This document shows positions 20,871-28,458 of a DNA stretch of 64,000 bases, piece by piece. Both the position numbers and the translations under genes were made by a program. The stretch lies in sequence record MN648445; one strand, given 5' to 3'. Source of the DNA: Escherichia phage FP43. How positions within the stretch are numbered: position 1 is the first letter of the stretch; each line of letters opens with the position of its first letter. The notes beneath the pieces were generated by a model, which saw only the letters and a list, made by a program, of their open reading frames with translations, had not been told where the DNA came from and searched no databases.

Positions 20871-21050
20871 ATGGCAAAACAAGCTAAAGCAAAGAAAGCA
20901 GTTGAAAAGAAAGTTGATGGTACCTCTAAACGCGCTGGATACAAGCGTGGGTCGAACTCTCGTATTAATCAAACAGTTGAGAAGATCATGCGCAGAGCAC
21001 GTGCAGTTCTTCGAGATGATGCTTCTCGTTTTGGAAAGGTTGTTGCATAA
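20871..21050 (+). CDS. Small lysine-rich basic protein (59 aa), unannotated in the ORF track
   Basis: ATG 20871 to TAA 21048-21050; MAKQAKAKKAVEKKVDGTSKRAGYKRGSNSRINQTVEKIMRRARAVLRDDASRFGKVVA; followed at 6 nt by a strong terminator. Confidence 0.45.
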   Translation: MAKQAKAKKAVEKKVDGTSKRAGYKRGSNSRINQTVEKIMRRARAVLRDDASRFGKVVA

Positions 21051-21055
21051 TTTTA

Positions 21056-21077
21056 GGGAGACTTCGGTCTCCCTTTT
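21056..21077 (+). terminator. Rho-independent terminator
   Basis: GGGAGAC-TTCG-GTCTCCC followed by TTTT; identical stem-loop to the gene 32 terminator. Confidence 0.75.
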
Positions 21078-21109
21078 GTGCGTTTAGGGCAGAAAAAGTT
21101 TAAAAAGAT

Positions 21110-21138
21110 GTTTACTCTCCTGTAGGATGTGTTACTAT
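21110..21138 (+). promoter_or_regulatory. Early promoter
   Basis: GTTTAC 21110-21115, 17-nt spacer, TGTGTTACTAT ending 21138. Confidence 0.6.
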
Positions 21139-21180
21139 AGACTTGTACCATCTAATCAATAAAACAACCTGGAGAACAAA

Positions 21181-21549
21181 ATGAAAATCAATCTGAACTC
21201 ATACATCAAATGTAAAGACCACGACGGTTATAAAGCTATCGAAATTAAAGAATTCCAGTGGATGTTATACAAAGAGCAATTTGAGATCGTAAGTTGTATG
21301 ACCCCTGAAGGTCCTTCAAATGATTTCTCTTGGAAAATTGTGTTAGCAAACTTTTTCACAGGTGACACATACGAATTAAAAACTATTATTACAGGTAAAA
21401 TTCGCTCAGAAACATATGTTGACGAAGAAACTGGTTACTCTGAAGATGTCACATGGTATCAAAATGGACGCATTACAGCAGATAACCTGATCGAAAAAAT
21501 GAAAGCCAAAGGTGTTTTAAATTTAGACAATTGGATTAAAGTTGCATAA
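21181..21549 (+). CDS. Hypothetical protein
   Basis: 122-aa ORF with own promoter and RBS GGAG. Confidence 0.5.
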   Translation: MKINLNSYIKCKDHDGYKAIEIKEFQWMLYKEQFEIVSCMTPEGPSNDFSWKIVLANFFTGDTYELKTIITGKIRSETYVDEETGYSEDVTWYQNGRITADNLIEKMKAKGVLNLDNWIKVA

Positions 21550-21553
21550 AACA

Positions 21554-21593
21554 GTTTACTTTGGTACAGGTTATGTTATTATAGACCTGTACC
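21554..21593 (+). promoter_or_regulatory. Early promoter with -10 embedded in the loop of a perfect 8-bp inverted repeat
   Basis: GTTTAC 21554-21559; GGTACAGG (21563-21570) / CCTGTACC (21586-21593) flanking TTATGTTATTATAGA containing TATTAT. Confidence 0.6.
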
Positions 21594-21623
21594 AACAAAC
21601 AACTTAAACATCTGGAGAATAAA

Positions 21624-21989
21624 ATGAACTACATCAACTTCGAACGCAAATATGTTTCTAACGGTATCGCTGGTTCTTCTGAAGTTATTTGCTTATGGAA
21701 ACATAAAAATGGTTCAGTATGTGAAATTGAGCAGTATATGACTCCTAATTACGTTTATATGCGATTTGAAAATGGCATCACGGTTTCAATCACGATGGAA
21801 GGTTCCAACTTCAAAATTGCATTAGATGACGATTTCCGTCAGCGTGATTTAGGTACTCATCCTTGCTGGAATGGTGATAATCGTAAACTTCTGGTTAAAA
21901 CTTGGATTCGTCATATCCTGAGTAACCGAGCTAAACCTGAACATCTCGAAGCAATCTTTGATGTAGTTCTTAATGAATTCGATATCTAA
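21624..21989 (+). CDS. Hypothetical protein
   Basis: 121-aa ORF with RBS GGAG. Confidence 0.5.
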   Translation: MNYINFERKYVSNGIAGSSEVICLWKHKNGSVCEIEQYMTPNYVYMRFENGITVSITMEGSNFKIALDDDFRQRDLGTHPCWNGDNRKLLVKTWIRHILSNRAKPEHLEAIFDVVLNEFDI

Positions 21990-21997
21990 TTTAACTG

Positions 21998-22011
21998 GGA
22001 GCTTCGGCTCC
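21998..22011 (+). other. GC-rich UUCG-loop hairpin without U-tract
   Basis: GGAGC-TTCG-GCTCC between ORF 21624 stop and ORF 22025 RBS. Confidence 0.35.
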
Positions 22012-22024
22012 TACTGAGGAAATT

Positions 22025-22639
22025 ATGTTTAAAGTTAATACTTTTTATAAAATGAATTTTAAAAATGGGGATATTACTCCACGCCTTAAAAACATGTTCT
22101 CATATGACCTTATCGAGCCTTTTGAAGTTTTAGAAGTTACTGATGCCGGCTCAGTTTGTGAAATTAGAACTTCTGAAGGTAAAATTTATCAGGCAGGTGT
22201 CGGTAAATTCAGTAATTGTTTTACTTTAATATTCTCGACTGATTTAGATGAGCATTTTATTGAATGTCCTAACCCTAAGGTCTATGAAGTTCCACATCAA
22301 GAAATTAAGAAAAATGGACCGCACGAATATACGAAGGTTGAAACTCCTCACGGCGTGATGTGGCGTCATAACTCTCCTTTTGGAAGTAAAGGAACATTTG
22401 CTCAACTGGCTAAGCCCTACGACGATGAAAAATATGTAGTAGTCCTTTTATCTGAACAGGGTACTCAAGACCGTGGATGTCAACGAAGTGGTTTACTAAG
22501 TGAACTCGAAGCTCATAACCGAGCACGTGAATTCGTTGAGAAAAATCCTGGTTCTGAAGCTCTAGTCATGAAAGCAATTACTCAATATATCACTGCTCAA
22601 CCTGTTGTTCATCCGGTAGAAATTAATTTCATTAAGTAG
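22025..22639 (+). CDS. Hypothetical protein
   Basis: 204-aa ORF, RBS GAGGAAA. Confidence 0.5.
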   Translation: MFKVNTFYKMNFKNGDITPRLKNMFSYDLIEPFEVLEVTDAGSVCEIRTSEGKIYQAGVGKFSNCFTLIFSTDLDEHFIECPNPKVYEVPHQEIKKNGPHEYTKVETPHGVMWRHNSPFGSKGTFAQLAKPYDDEKYVVVLLSEQGTQDRGCQRSGLLSELEAHNRAREFVEKNPGSEALVMKAITQYITAQPVVHPVEINFIK

Positions 22640-22669
22640 TTTACATCCAAGGACGGATTAGAGTATAAT
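22639..22669 (+). promoter_or_regulatory. Early promoter
   Basis: GTTTAC 22639-22644 overlapping upstream stop codon, 19-nt spacer, TATAAT 22664-22669. Confidence 0.5.
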
Positions 22670-22695
22670 GATTTCTTTACTAAGTGGAAAAAAAT

Positions 22696-22893
22696 ATGAA
22701 ATTTTTAATAGCACAAACAGTCCAATTAAAAGGTGTTGGAATTCCTGGGGTGATTTTTAAAGTTCTCCCTGAATTTAAAACCAGCGCTGGAATTATCAAT
22801 GAAGCGTATGCTGTTCAATGGGTTGATTGGACTTCTGACATACGTATGGGTAAAGAGTTATCTCCTATTAAAGGGTTGAAACATGTTGAATAA
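22696..22893 (+). CDS. Hypothetical protein
   Basis: 65 aa from ATG 22696 (track starts at GTG 22684). Confidence 0.4.
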   Translation: MKFLIAQTVQLKGVGIPGVIFKVLPEFKTSAGIINEAYAVQWVDWTSDIRMGKELSPIKGLKHVE

Positions 22894-23095
22894 ATTAATC
22901 CAGAAATTGTTAGGTACAGAAATGGTTGAAGTTACGTATCGTGTGACTGATGTAAGCCCATGGACCCGAAAAGTTGAACCATATACTAAAACAATTAAAA
23001 TGCTGAAATATGACAGTGGATTATCTATCAAAGACCGTCTACCGGCTTATGGTCATTGGGCTGATGTTGAAATTATAAGTGTTAAAGATGTCTGA
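22883..23095 (+). CDS. Hypothetical protein
   Basis: 70-aa ORF overlapping neighbours at both ends. Confidence 0.4.
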   Translation: MLNKLIQKLLGTEMVEVTYRVTDVSPWTRKVEPYTKTIKMLKYDSGLSIKDRLPAYGHWADVEIISVKDV

Positions 23096-23546
23096 GTTAG
23101 AGATAAGAAGCAATTTCAAGTGGCCGTCATGTGCATTAAGTAACTTTGCTCAATGGCCTTTTGTTATGGATGGTATTCAATTCGGAGGTCTTGAAGGATT
23201 TCTCCAAGGATGTAAGGTGAAAAATGTTGAACAACAAAGACGTATATTTGGGTTGTCTGGATTGGCCGCACAGCAAGCTGGAAGGTCTTATGCAAGAGCT
23301 CAGGACCGTGGGACTCTCTTCTGGTTAGGAGTTCCATTTTCAAGATACTCCGAAGCGTGGAAAGAATTATACACAAATGCATATTTTGAAGCCGCGATCC
23401 AAAACAAGGGGTTTCGTGATGCCTTACAAGCCTCTAAAGGAAAAATTTTGAAGCACAGCATGGCCAGCCACCTAACAAAAGATGATACAATACTAACTGA
23501 AGATGAATTTATTGACGTGTTAAACCTATTAAGAGACTCTTTATGA
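23088..23546 (+). CDS. NADAR-domain (YbiA-like, DUF1768) protein; putative ADP-ribose-linked N-glycosidase / de-ADP-ribosylating hydrolase
   Basis: Motif LSNFAQWPFVMDGIQFGGLEGFLQGCKV parallels the YbiA-family signature FSNFAAWP..DG...SEHYFQAQKF as recalled; ATG 23088 overlaps upstream stop (alternative GTG start 23079); ATGA overlap with the downstream HAD ORF. Confidence 0.65.
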   Translation: MSELEIRSNFKWPSCALSNFAQWPFVMDGIQFGGLEGFLQGCKVKNVEQQRRIFGLSGLAAQQAGRSYARAQDRGTLFWLGVPFSRYSEAWKELYTNAYFEAAIQNKGFRDALQASKGKILKHSMASHLTKDDTILTEDEFIDVLNLLRDSL

Positions 23547-24358
23547 AGCCTACTATTTTGACTGATATTGATGGTGTATGTTTAAGTTGGCAATCTGGAC
23601 TTCCTTATTTTGCCCAAAAATATAATCTTCCATTAGAACATATTTTAAAAATGATTCAGGACGAAAAATTTATTTCTCCTGGTAAACTGTTCAATACCGA
23701 TGATAACCTCGGTAAACAATTAATAGAAAAATATAATCGCTCTGATTTTATTCGTTACTTAGCGCCTTATTCGGATGCTCTTCGAGTTATCAATAAACTA
23801 AAAGAAGACTATAATTTTGTAGCCGTGACGGCGCTAGGTGATTCAATTGATGCTCGATTGAATAGACAATTTAATTTGAATGCTTTGTTCCCAGGCGCTT
23901 TTTCTGAAGTAATGATGTGTGGTCATGATTCGTCAAAGGAACAATTATTCGAACTAGCTAAAACAAAATATAACGTGATTTGTTACGTTGACGATTTAGC
24001 TCATCACTGTGACCATGCGGCAGAAATTCTTAATGTACCGATTTATTGGTTGGCCCGTGGTGAACGTGATGATATTCCTCGCACTGCACAACGTGTACAC
24101 ACGTGGGATGATATTGAATCTCGTTTGGTTCCACCCGAGCATAATTCAGATTCAGATCGTGAAGACCTTTTAAAACGATTGGCGGATTTGCTTAAAGAAT
24201 CAGGTGCAACAAGCCCAGGTGCATGGCCTAATCAAATTGGCGCTCCGTCGAATCCGTATACTTGGCGAACTCCAGGACCAACCGATATGCAGCCATGGTG
24301 GACGATTCAAAACTTTCCTTTAGATTCGTCCAAATGGACTTGGTCTATAAATTGTTAA
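23543..24358 (+). CDS. HAD-superfamily phosphatase-like protein with Trp/Pro-rich C-terminal tail
   Basis: 271-aa ORF; N-terminal motif ILTDIDGV (HAD motif I, DxDG) and later YVDDL; C-terminal ~60 aa rich in W and P (PGAWPNQIGAPSNPYTWRTPGPTDMQPWWTIQNFP). Confidence 0.55.
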   Translation: MKPTILTDIDGVCLSWQSGLPYFAQKYNLPLEHILKMIQDEKFISPGKLFNTDDNLGKQLIEKYNRSDFIRYLAPYSDALRVINKLKEDYNFVAVTALGDSIDARLNRQFNLNALFPGAFSEVMMCGHDSSKEQLFELAKTKYNVICYVDDLAHHCDHAAEILNVPIYWLARGERDDIPRTAQRVHTWDDIESRLVPPEHNSDSDREDLLKRLADLLKESGATSPGAWPNQIGAPSNPYTWRTPGPTDMQPWWTIQNFPLDSSKWTWSINC

Positions 24359-24367
24359 GGGCTAATT

Positions 24368-24637
24368 ATGTTTGTAGTTCATGATATTACAGATGGCAAA
24401 AACACCACACGTGACTACGGTCATGTTAACATGTTCTTTCGAGACTGGCCGGTGTTTCGTTCAGTAAAAGACGCAGAAATATTTAAAGAGTGTGTTGAAC
24501 AAGGGTTCATCTACATTTCAGAATATTATGTTGAAGGACTCGGTAAATGGATTACCACTTATCAGAAAACGCTGAAATCGCTTCTAGATGAAGTGGCTTA
24601 TAATAGAACCGTAACCAAAATCGAGGACATCAAATGA
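24368..24637 (+). CDS. Hypothetical protein
   Basis: 89-aa ORF; ATGA overlap with DNA ligase start. Confidence 0.45.
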   Translation: MFVVHDITDGKNTTRDYGHVNMFFRDWPVFRSVKDAEIFKECVEQGFIYISEYYVEGLGKWITTYQKTLKSLLDEVAYNRTVTKIEDIK

Positions 24638-26127
24638 TTTTAGATATTTTAAACCAAATAGCTGCGATCGGTTCTACTAAAACAAAACAAGAAATCCTTA
24701 AGAAAAATAAGGACAACAAATTACTTGAACGTGTGTATCGTTTAACATATGCACGTGGTATCCAGTATTATATTAAGAAATGGCCAGGACCAGGTGAAAG
24801 GTCTCAAGCGTATGGTCTTCTTGAATTAGATGACATGTTGGATTTTATTGAGTTCACATTAGCCACTCGTAAACTCACTGGTAATGCTGCAATTAAAGAG
24901 CTCATGGGTTATATCGCTGACGGTAAACCTGATGATGTAGAAGTCCTTCGTCGTGTAATGATGCGAGACCTTGAAGTAGGTGCTTCAGTGTCTATCGCGA
25001 ATAAGGTGTGGCCTGGACTTATTCAATTGCAGCCACAGATGTTAGCATCTGCATATGATGAGAAATTGATTACTAAAAATATTAAATGGCCTGCATTTGC
25101 CCAATTAAAGGCAGATGGTGCTCGTTGTTTCGCTGAAGTTCGCGATGATGGCGTTCAATTCTTTTCTCGTGCCGGTAACGAATACCATGGTCTTACTCTA
25201 TTAGCAGATGAACTAATGGAAATGACTAAAGAAGCTCGTGAAAGACACCCTAATGGGGTTTTAATCGACGGTGAATTAGTTTATCATTCATTTGATATTA
25301 AAAAGGCTGTGAGCTCAGGAAATGACCTGTCGTTCTTATTTGGCGATAATGAAGAATCCGAAGAAGTACAAGTTGCAGACCGTAGCACTTCAAATGGTTT
25401 AGCAAATAAATCTCTTCAAGGGACTATTTCTCCTAAAGAAGCGGAAGGTATGGTTCTTCAAGCCTGGGACTATGTTCCTTTAGATGAAGTCTACTCTGAT
25501 GGCAAAATTAAAGGTCAGAAATACGATGTTCGTTTTGCTGCTCTTGAAAATATGGCTGAAGGCTTTAAGCGAATTGAGCCAATTGAAAATCAGTTAGTTC
25601 GTAATCTTGACGAAGCTAAAGTGGTTTATAAAAAATATGTTGACCAAGGTCTTGAAGGTATTATCCTTAAAAACCGTGATTCATATTGGGAAAACAAACG
25701 CTCTAAGAACCTAATTAAATTTAAAGAAGTTATTGATATCGCTTTAGAAGTTGTAGGATACTACGAACACTCTAAAGACCCTAACAAATTAGGTGGTGTC
25801 GAACTCGTATCACGTTGTCGTCGTATTACAACCGATTGTGGTTCAGGGTTTAAAGATACAACTCATAAAACAGTTGATGGTGTAAAGGTTCTTATTCCTT
25901 TAGATGAGCGTCATGATTTAGACCGTGAACGATTAATGGCTGAAGCTCGTGAAGGTAAATTGATTGGACGTATTGCTGATTGCGAATGTAATGGTTGGGT
26001 TCATTCTAAAGGACGTGAAGGCACTGTAGGTATTTTCCTTCCAATTATTAAAGGGTTCCGTTTTGATAAAACAGAAGCGGATTCATTTGAAGACGTATTT
26101 GGACCGTGGTCCCAGACAGGTTTATAA
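24634..26127 (+). CDS. 30: ATP-dependent DNA ligase
   Basis: 497-aa ORF MILDILNQIAAIGSTKTKQEILKKNKDNKLLERVYRLTY; adenylation lysine motif KADGAR; matches T4 ligase by recall. Confidence 0.95.
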   Translation: MILDILNQIAAIGSTKTKQEILKKNKDNKLLERVYRLTYARGIQYYIKKWPGPGERSQAYGLLELDDMLDFIEFTLATRKLTGNAAIKELMGYIADGKPDDVEVLRRVMMRDLEVGASVSIANKVWPGLIQLQPQMLASAYDEKLITKNIKWPAFAQLKADGARCFAEVRDDGVQFFSRAGNEYHGLTLLADELMEMTKEARERHPNGVLIDGELVYHSFDIKKAVSSGNDLSFLFGDNEESEEVQVADRSTSNGLANKSLQGTISPKEAEGMVLQAWDYVPLDEVYSDGKIKGQKYDVRFAALENMAEGFKRIEPIENQLVRNLDEAKVVYKKYVDQGLEGIILKNRDSYWENKRSKNLIKFKEVIDIALEVVGYYEHSKDPNKLGGVELVSRCRRITTDCGSGFKDTTHKTVDGVKVLIPLDERHDLDRERLMAEAREGKLIGRIADCECNGWVHSKGREGTVGIFLPIIKGFRFDKTEADSFEDVFGPWSQTGL

Positions 26128-26315
26128 TGAAAGCTTATTTAGAAACAGTTATTGTAGCTAAGAAGGATGGTGGAGATGTTTCCACCTCTTGCTCTCAGAT
26201 TATATTAGATTTTCCTAATAACGATTCCTATCATATTTTTATGGACAATTTCGATAAGTACGAAAAAGGCTCTAATTTTGAAGTTTATCGTACTTTGCTT
26301 CCGATTGTGGATTAA
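26127..26315 (+). CDS. Hypothetical protein
   Basis: 62 aa from ATG 26127 (TAATG overlap with ligase stop). Confidence 0.4.
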   Translation: MKAYLETVIVAKKDGGDVSTSCSQIILDFPNNDSYHIFMDNFDKYEKGSNFEVYRTLLPIVD

Positions 26316-26334
26316 GAGCCTTCGGGCTCTTTTT
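26315..26334 (+). terminator. Rho-independent terminator
   Basis: AGAGCC-TTCG-GGCTCT followed by TTTT. Confidence 0.7.
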
Positions 26335-26370
26335 GGCATAAATATAAATTATTACTAAAAGGAAAACACT

Positions 26371-28458
26371 ATGTCTGAACAATTAAATGAAGTGTTTGAA
26401 TCTGAAGGCAGTCTTCCTGTCGTCAATTTGAACCCTAAAGCTAAAGTTCCACAAGTCTGGAAAATTGGTGATATCGATACAAATATTGTAGTTCGTTTAT
26501 TCTCTTACCTTTCCGAAGGCGACGCTGTAAAACAAGTTAAACTTGGCGACAAATACGCTCATGTTGTTATTATGAGTCTGTCTGAAAAGGGTAATCTCGC
26601 TGAATTGAAAAATGGCCTTGGTCCTGCTCCTATTGATGCAATCAACACCATTTTCAATACAGTGTATGAACAGGTTAAAGCTCTTCGTATGGATGCAGTT
26701 CTGTTCCGATTCCCTACCAAGAAATTGAAAGGACGTGGACAACAACTTCAAACTCTTCTTGCTCGTCTAGTTTCTACTAAAACCGGTGGTCGTTTTAAAG
26801 TATTGTCTGCAATGTATCAATTCACAGGTAAACACACCTATGTGATGATGGTTCGTAAAAATGCCAACATTGAAGATATTAAAGGCATCCCTAACATTAA
26901 CACAGAGTTGTACACGAAAGTAGATTCTGATGTTGGCGAAGTTTATGTGAGTAAAAAGACTGGTGAAAAGGTCACCAAAGAAACGGCTATCGCTGGTTCT
27001 ATTGCTGCTGTAGAAGAAAAACGTAAAGATAAGCCTGTTATTGCTCGTACTAAAATTTCTCGTCGTGCTATTGCAGCAAGTCAATCTTTAGAAGCTGACC
27101 GACAAGAAGGTGAGTTATTCCAGAAATACGAAAATTCTGCTAAAGAAGTTAGTGGCCCGGCTACAGCTGAATTACTTCCTGAAGCATATGAAATTGTACT
27201 AGCCCAAGCATCGTCCACAGCAAAAGGCACTTTAGTTGCTGATATCGAAAATAAGATTTATAATCGTATTGATGAATCCTTTAAATTTGCCGATGAAGTT
27301 TCTTATGGTAGTGTTATTAAGCCGACTTTAGAAAAGTTTGCTAAGAAAATTAAAACTGAAAAAACAACATCTGTTAAAGCATTATCTGCTTTTGTTGAAG
27401 CTGCAAATGAAATTGCAGACTCTATTAAAGACGAATGGTTTGAAGATTTTAGACGTGATAATTTCCAACTGCCTGACGACGTTTTAGCTGAAGTATCTGA
27501 AAGAACTTGGAAACAACGTAAATCAGCGTTCTTGTCTAATGTGATGTATACTTATGCCCGAGAATCGGCTAGAGGCACCTTTAATATAACAATGAATCGG
27601 GACCCTAAACAATACTCTGTTGCTGAAAAACGAGCTATTCGTGAATATGCCTCTTCTGCGTATACCGATATCAATAATATGTTGTTAGGTCGTTATAAAC
27701 CGGATTTTTATGATGTTGCGGATGAAGATGAAGTTAAACGCGCTATTGATGGTCTTGATTCGGCGTTTTTAAATGGAGACCGTTTACCTGAAGGACTAAC
27801 GTTATATAGAGCTCAGTCTATCAGAATGCCTATTTACGAAGCAATGGTTAAAAATAAGGTATTCTACTTCAGAAACTATGTTTCCACTTCACTAGCTCCT
27901 ATTATTTTCGGTGGGTTTAAAGAGAACGTTGCCCTTGGACTTGCTCCTGAAGAAGTTCGCAAAGAGCTTAACATTGACAATAATGACGAAGGTGTTACTA
28001 TTTCTCCTAGTCAAGTAAGAACAGCTATGCATGCACCAGAACAAATCCGTGTTAACGTTGGATGGGCTATTGATGGCGCCCATAAAGTTAACGTGATTTA
28101 TCCAGGACAGTTGAGTAATCACCCTAATGAGCAAGAAATTATTTTGCCTAGAGGCATTCTCTTGCAGATAAATAAAATTACAGATGCGTCATCTGATACT
28201 GGTGCAGGTTTAGAATCCAACCTTAAATTTATTCAAGCTGAAGTTATGTCCTCAGACCAGTTGGATGAAGCCGTCATTTATGATGGTGATGTTCTCATGG
28301 AAACAGGCGAGGTGGTTGCTATGACGGGTGAAATCGAATCAGATGAGCCGGTATCGTTCTCCTCATTTGTAGAAAAAACTAGTGCACCTAAAGGTTTGAA
28401 ATTGTTAGCATCTTTAATGGATTTAGAATCAGTTCCGTTTAAATTTGTCCAAGGATAG
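26371..28458 (+). CDS. alt: ADP-ribosyltransferase Alt
   Basis: 695-aa ORF; C-terminal region with ART-like segment (GLTLYRAQS, VFYFRNYVSTSL); C-terminus MPYKFVQG-like ending (SVPFKFVQG); synteny next to gene 30. Confidence 0.85.
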   Translation: MSEQLNEVFESEGSLPVVNLNPKAKVPQVWKIGDIDTNIVVRLFSYLSEGDAVKQVKLGDKYAHVVIMSLSEKGNLAELKNGLGPAPIDAINTIFNTVYEQVKALRMDAVLFRFPTKKLKGRGQQLQTLLARLVSTKTGGRFKVLSAMYQFTGKHTYVMMVRKNANIEDIKGIPNINTELYTKVDSDVGEVYVSKKTGEKVTKETAIAGSIAAVEEKRKDKPVIARTKISRRAIAASQSLEADRQEGELFQKYENSAKEVSGPATAELLPEAYEIVLAQASSTAKGTLVADIENKIYNRIDESFKFADEVSYGSVIKPTLEKFAKKIKTEKTTSVKALSAFVEAANEIADSIKDEWFEDFRRDNFQLPDDVLAEVSERTWKQRKSAFLSNVMYTYARESARGTFNITMNRDPKQYSVAEKRAIREYASSAYTDINNMLLGRYKPDFYDVADEDEVKRAIDGLDSAFLNGDRLPEGLTLYRAQSIRMPIYEAMVKNKVFYFRNYVSTSLAPIIFGGFKENVALGLAPEEVRKELNIDNNDEGVTISPSQVRTAMHAPEQIRVNVGWAIDGAHKVNVIYPGQLSNHPNEQEIILPRGILLQINKITDASSDTGAGLESNLKFIQAEVMSSDQLDEAVIYDGDVLMETGEVVAMTGEIESDEPVSFSSFVEKTSAPKGLKLLASLMDLESVPFKFVQG

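Follow-up and report, generated by a model that had tools for sequence, protein, structure and literature searches.

NADAR enzymes hydrolyse guanine-ADP-ribose and function as antitoxin to DarT1 (Schuller et al., 2023; PMC11543638). The phage enzymes make up one of the four NADAR families distinguished in a 2026 paper that used the T4 enzyme, and the tested representatives of all families, including that of T4, are reported to strip guanine-ADP-ribose from RNA as well as from DNA (PMC12945103). In the published phylogeny the closest relatives of the phage NADARs are those of the DarG1 type and not YbiA (PMC11825919). The DarG1-type antitoxins (8bat of G. lovleyi and the E. coli C7 NADAR) are longer than the phage proteins (219 amino acids for 8bat) and carry additional N-terminal elements; their gene adjoins darT1 and, unlike T4 AdfN, they function as antitoxins even when no phage is present (PMC11543638, PMC11125620, PMC11825919). 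The catalytic Glu of NADARs has been described as coordinating the ribose, and Lys95 of the C7 enzyme is essential (PMC11543638). A His after the last β-strand is the hallmark of phage NADARs; the corresponding residue is Glu in YbiA and Asp in DarG1 (PMC11125620, PMC11543638, PMC12945103).

The closest described system is that of phage T4, whose gp30.3 removes guanine-ADP-ribose from DNA in vitro, leaves thymidine-ADP-ribose in place and does not rescue uninfected cells from DarT1 toxicity (Toxins, 2024; PMC11125620). Chimeras of T2 × RB69 and T4 × RB69 mapped DarTG1 resistance to the 3′ part of gene 30.3, which was renamed adfN, for anti-DarT factor NADAR (Johannesman et al., Nat Commun, 2025; PMC11825919). 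According to the same study, deletion of adfN makes T4 sensitive to DarTG1, the E36A variant of T4 AdfN loses activity or is weakened, K43A gives only partial rescue and a truncated T4 allele has reduced activity (PMC11825919). RB69, which is reported to be DarTG1-sensitive, has an adfN crippled by a T inserted at position 411, so that the 15 C-terminal residues are lost, and the phage is rescued on a DarTG1 host by plasmid-expressed adfN (PMC11825919). T4 AdfN does not bind DarT1, does not counter DarTG2 and functions fully only during T-even infection, with T5 and Bas25 hardly being rescued (PMC11825919). The AdfN proteins of Bas32 and Bas60 are also phage NADARs that reverse the DarT1 modification and counter DarTG1; they were acquired independently, belong to other NADAR branches and, unlike the T4-type enzyme, neutralize DarT1 without infection (PMC11825919).

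In this study, we analysed a 64,000-nucleotide stretch of DNA from Escherichia phage FP43 (sequence record MN648445), referred to here as the window, in which the initial annotation had proposed a NADAR-type enzyme with an anti-defence role. We consider the gene, with a probability of about 0.9, to be an intact orthologue of T4 gene 30.3 (adfN) that encodes an anti-DarT1 NADAR working by the mechanism proposed below. The finding is not new, AdfN/gp30.3 having been described before; the gene family, fold, chemistry and anti-DarTG1 role were published between 2023 and 2026, so it carries little weight as a discovery, and its practical value lies in annotation and in the prediction of plating on DarTG1 hosts. 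Among the deposited T4-like phage records listed as matches, a few have no annotation and nearly all of the others label gene 30.3 a hypothetical protein; these labels reflect an annotation gap and not a biological one.

Genomic context and reading frame of gene 30.3

The region shows 97–98% DNA identity to Escherichia phages p000y, 55, ATK47 and JS09, the last of which belongs, like RB69, to the genus Mosigvirus. We compared the block 20871–28458 with the corresponding loci of T4, RB69 and JS09. Protein identities taken gene by gene identify the window phage as an RB69-like Mosigvirus and not as T4: the DNA ligase is 99% identical to that of RB69 and 64% identical to that of T4, gp30.2 is 100 and 70% identical, respectively, and Alt is 92 and 41% identical (99% to JS09). 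The neighbouring proteins shared with RB69 are mostly 90–100% identical. Against T4, gp30.3, gp30.7 and gp30.9 stand out at 95–96% protein identity, whereas the ligase, gp30.2, gp30.1, gp30.4, gp30.8 and Alt reach 38–70%, Alt being among the most diverged proteins of the block. For gp30.3 itself the values are 96% to T4 and 97% to RB69 over the 137 residues of the latter.

The genes 30.5, 30.4, 30.3, 30.2, 30.1, DNA ligase, alt.1 and alt form a same-strand chain with touching or overlapping starts and stops, and the order 30.4–30.3–30.2–30.1–ligase and its start/stop overlaps are as in T4, RB69 and JS09 (Table 1). The best promoter-like site lies upstream of 30.5; such sites, and those found in the promoter and terminator scan as a whole, are no more numerous than in shuffled sequence and were given no weight as evidence.

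Table 1. Features in and around gene 30.3 of the window (one-based positions).
Feature	Position	Strand	Remarks
adfN (gene 30.3) CDS	23088..23546	+	152 aa plus stop; predicted phage NADAR removing ADP-ribose from DNA
Three additional in-frame codons, GTG TTA AAG	23079..23087	+	Part of the ORF in the initial annotation; probably untranslated
Conserved NADAR core, residues 17–44, LSNF...EGFLQGCK	23136..23219	+	Invariant columns; alignment to YbiA core, E = 0.008
Codon GAA, Glu36, putative catalytic glutamate	23193..23195	+	= PnNADAR E43, E. coli C7 NADAR E88; invariant in 62 homologues
Codon AAG, Lys43, putative phosphate-coordinating lysine	23214..23216	+	= PnNADAR K50, C7 K95; invariant
Codon CAC, His123, after last β-strand	23454..23456	+	Glu in YbiA, Asp in DarG1; invariant; follows model strand 120–122
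C-terminal helix, residues 138–151	23499..23540	+	Helix in the model; intact; needed for full activity
Gene 30.2	23543..24358	+	271 aa; start overlaps 30.3 stop (ATGA); HAD motif-I-like DIDGV at its beginning
Alt-type ADP-ribosyltransferase	26371..28458	+	PF03496, E = 6e-28
Counterpart of T4 ORF 30.3′	23224..23328	+	Out of frame within 30.3; ends after 34 aa
Point corresponding to the RB69 T insertion	23497..23498		RB69 gene 30.3 is L083 10222–10681
204-aa ORF	22025..22639	+	gp30.6A in JS09 and TuIa; PHROG 17531
Best promoter-like site	22640..22669		11/12 matches

The segment LSNFAQWPFVMDGIQFGGLEGFLQGCKV, which the initial annotation had singled out, is present in the forward-strand ORF 23079–23546 and, with ATG 23088 as the start, spans residues 17–44. 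That the ORF is a genuine gene is shown by its match to Pfam PF08010, its homologues in many phages and the selection acting on it, as detailed below. The end of the span given earlier, 23546, is retained, but the start has been moved by 9 nucleotides. GTG 23079 is the first start codon of the frame, taken mechanically, whereas ATG 23088 is the more likely start, since it overlaps the stop of gene 30.4 by 8 nucleotides (ATGTCTGA), gives a protein of 152 residues, the length of the annotated T4 and JS09 genes, which begin at ATG, and fits the published numbering of the catalytic residues E36 and K43. The homologues in a 62-sequence alignment also begin at about this position.

Matches to gene 30.3 were found by tblastn in 1510 phage records from many host genera, and alleles at least 99% identical to that of the window occur in JS09 and at least 64 phage records. 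The dN/dS ratio is 0.066 against T4 and 0.034 against JS09, which indicates that the frame is under strong purifying selection. An internal out-of-frame ORF of 75 amino acids, 30.3′, is annotated in T4; its counterpart in the window is cut short, and in JS09 its start ATG has been replaced by ACG. As the frame is conserved in neither, 30.3′ was not accepted as part of the feature and is probably not a gene.

Assignment to the NADAR superfamily

The window protein matches the Pfam family PF08010 (Phage_30_3) over profile positions 1–138 of 138 with E = 2.2e-69 and 232 bits (cutoff 36), and PHROG 652 with E = 2e-52. It agrees with the PF08010/AdfN family in exceeding the model threshold, in the position of its His, in gene order and in its intact C-terminal helix. 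Pfam treats gp30.3 as a family separate from NADAR. The NADAR model PF08719 gave no direct match to the window protein at E ≤ 1, and no match was obtained for it in the NCBIfam search, with the PADLOC models, including that for DarG1, or with phmmer against PDB sequences. Membership of the superfamily therefore rests on remote homology and predicted structure, and the link was drawn at the level of the family, through a scan of homologues, a family profile and a structure prediction.

Among the 82 gp30.3 homologues found, some are named YbiA/DUF1768 by JGI, and 25 of the 62 full-length homologues match PF08719, the best with E = 1.5e-7. The profile built from the 62 sequences, when run against the whole PDB, returned E. 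coli YbiA at E = 0.008 and nothing else meaningful, and it aligns the quoted core to YbiA residues 29–82 (FSNFAAWPIKVDGKTWPTSEHYFQAQKF). The HMM comparison with NADAR/DUF1768 suggested in the initial annotation thus failed for the single protein but succeeded for its family, and the parallel that had been drawn between the segment and the YbiA core is borne out by the profile alignment. An AlphaFold2 model built on the homologue alignment is confident (pLDDT 94.3, pTM 0.89) and has the helical core and small flanking sheets of the YbiA/NADAR fold; its top three Foldseek matches are all NADAR/YbiA structures, namely YbiA (2b3w), a Phytophthora NADAR (8bau) and a Geobacter NADAR (8bat). Fold, family profile and catalytic residues, taken from alignment and model, thus support the window gp30.3 as a member of the NADAR superfamily, as had been proposed.

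Within the superfamily, E. coli YbiA, the best match of gp30.3 by both sequence profile and Foldseek, resembles it in consisting of nothing but a NADAR core, in its approximate size and in the SNF...E..FQ..K motif of that core, whereas the identity is about 20% and the last strand of YbiA carries Glu instead of His. DarG1 differs in other respects: gene 30.3 is flanked by 30.4 and 30.2 and not by darT, the residue after the last strand is His and not Asp, and the PADLOC result was negative. The protein would work like DarG1 enzymatically, yet lies outside the DarG1 family.

Catalytic residues and the C-terminal helix

The 62-sequence alignment contains 18 invariant columns, which include H123 and, in the core, L17, S18, N19, F20, F25, E36, G37, F38, Q40 and K43. 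E36 and K43 align with the YbiA motif SEHYFQAQKF, and the core motif E-x-F-x-Q-x-x-K is present. H123 is the putative counterpart of PnNADAR E125. T4 AdfN (NP_049816) and the window protein are both 152 residues long and are encoded between 30.4 and 30.2 with matching start and stop overlaps; both carry E36, K43 and H123, and in both the C-terminal helix is intact. The two differ in their host genomes, that of T4 being a Tequatrovirus and that of the window a Mosigvirus, and by six substitutions (K11R, E89P, I120V, M125I, H128G and D139A), none of which falls on an invariant column.

RB69 gp30.3 (NP_861905) shares genus and locus with the window gene, but unlike the full-length window allele it is naturally truncated and lacks the C-terminal helix. 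In the four-way DNA alignment RB69 has an extra T at column 411 that is absent from the window, T4 and JS09; it creates ACT TGA and a stop after residue 137. The C-terminal helix of the window protein is intact since the insertion is absent. Such truncation is rare: among 83 loci, short gene 30.3 ORFs were found only in RB69, in one distant locus and in a third that is interrupted by the end of its contig.

The high protein identity to T4 could have pointed to a T4-type recombinant patch in a Mosigvirus genome. This was rejected, as the RB69 and JS09 alleles (96% nucleotide identity) are nearer to that of the window than is the T4 allele (90%), which argues for a resident gene strongly conserved across both genera and not for an import. 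Conservation of gp30.3 at 96%, with most of its neighbours at 38–70%, fits strong continuing selection by DarT1-type defence.

Proposed mechanism and alternative explanations

Orthology, NADAR fold, catalytic residues, intact C-terminus and purifying selection are established by the present analysis, while the activity is assigned by analogy with T4. In the proposed mechanism, DarT1 of an infected DarTG1 host would ADP-ribosylate guanine in the phage DNA and so block replication, and AdfN would hydrolyse the bond between guanine and ADP-ribose to restore unmodified DNA. Glu36 would position the ribose, Lys43 would hold the diphosphate and His123 would take the place of the acidic residue of other NADARs; AdfN is a minimal protein made up of the NADAR core alone, and it would act without binding the toxin. 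Its action in vivo appears to need something from T-even infection, since the T4 protein neither neutralizes DarT1 in uninfected cells nor appreciably rescues T5 or Bas25. The removal of ADP-ribose and the role in countering DarT anticipated in the initial annotation are supported by the experiments on the 96% identical T4 protein (PMC11825919, PMC11125620). Given this identity, and with the catalytic residues and the C-terminus both preserved, we infer that the window allele is active like T4 AdfN, so that the phage would resist DarTG1, unlike its close relative RB69; hydrolysis of guanine-ADP-ribose by the window protein is likewise expected from the in vitro result for T4. Being closely related to RB69 but carrying an intact allele, the phage is predicted to plate on DarTG1 hosts on which RB69 fails. 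That the window allele might instead be dead or weakened like that of RB69, leaving the phage dependent on other anti-DarT factors, draws on their common genus, their similar neighbouring proteins and the truncated RB69 allele; it is very improbable in view of the full 152-residue frame free of the T insertion, the retention of all invariant family residues, dN/dS values of 0.03–0.07 and the nearly identical alleles maintained in JS09 and the many other phage records.

Other readings concern the substrate. The initial annotation had alternatively suggested that the enzyme controls the phage's own ADP-ribosyltransferases, citing an Alt gene about 3 kb away, and Alt is indeed found 2.8 kb downstream of 30.3 on the same strand. 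Alt-type enzymes modify protein arginine. All reported substrates of T4 gp30.3 are ADP-ribosylated nucleic-acid bases, namely guanine-ADP-ribose in DNA or RNA, with thymidine-ADP-ribose not being reversed (PMC11125620, PMC12945103). Although full function of T4 AdfN only in T-even infection could indicate a phage-specific substrate or partner (PMC11825919), the DarTG1 sensitivity that follows directly from adfN deletion (PMC11825919) and the lack of Alt within 4 kb at most distant homologue loci make it highly unlikely that the enzyme mainly polices Alt, ModA and ModB marks on host or phage targets instead of those of a host toxin; proximity was the argument for such control, and the claim is not upheld. 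A YbiA-like metabolic N-glycosidase that clears reactive intermediates of the riboflavin pathway, or comparable ribosylated small molecules, from the infected cell would be in keeping with the fold and catalytic core common to gp30.3 and E. coli YbiA and with the reported role of YbiA in cleaving a riboflavin intermediate (PMC11543638). We regard this as extremely unlikely, because phage NADARs have His in place of the Glu that defines the YbiA family, what has been demonstrated for the T4 orthologue is action against DarTG1 (PMC11825919) and it is the DarG1-type NADARs that are nearest in the phylogeny. A range extending beyond DarT1, to guanine-ADP-ribose in RNA or to other guanine-specific toxins such as YarT or those of the pierisin/ScARP type, would be compatible with the anti-DarT1 reading and has a small but appreciable chance of being correct: the tested NADARs of all families are reported to act on both nucleic acids (PMC12945103), and the spread of the family over 1510 phage records and many host genera goes beyond what a single toxin might explain, whereas DarTG1 is the only target reported in vivo and T4 AdfN fails against DarTG2 (PMC11825919).

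Gene 30.2 and other neighbouring ORFs

Gene 30.2, coupled to 30.3 by overlapping start and stop codons, belongs to PHROG 420. Its family matches are weak (HAD_2 at E = 0.02, which is below the cutoff, and a PDB match to a 5′(3′)-deoxyribonucleotidase at E = 0.8). AdfN may act with a phage-encoded partner, for which gp30.2, a putative HAD-like phosphatase, would be an example; it might act on the ADP-ribose that AdfN sets free, or help to bring AdfN to phage DNA under replication, and 30.3–30.2 would then be a two-gene repair module and not a lone enzyme. A tblastn comparison of 80 IMG/VR loci placed a 30.2 homologue within 4 kb of 30.3 in T-even, RB43-like and Acinetobacter-type loci and in about 9 of about 66 distant loci. 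Gene 30.2 was accordingly rejected as a constant partner of 30.3, and in the absence of strong linkage such a partnership is quite unlikely.

The 204-residue ORF further upstream, known as gp30.6A in JS09 and TuIa, matches nothing in Pfam or in the loci of T4 and RB69. It occupies the slot that in T4 and RB69 is filled by the unrelated 95-residue gp30.6, which makes this a variable slot.
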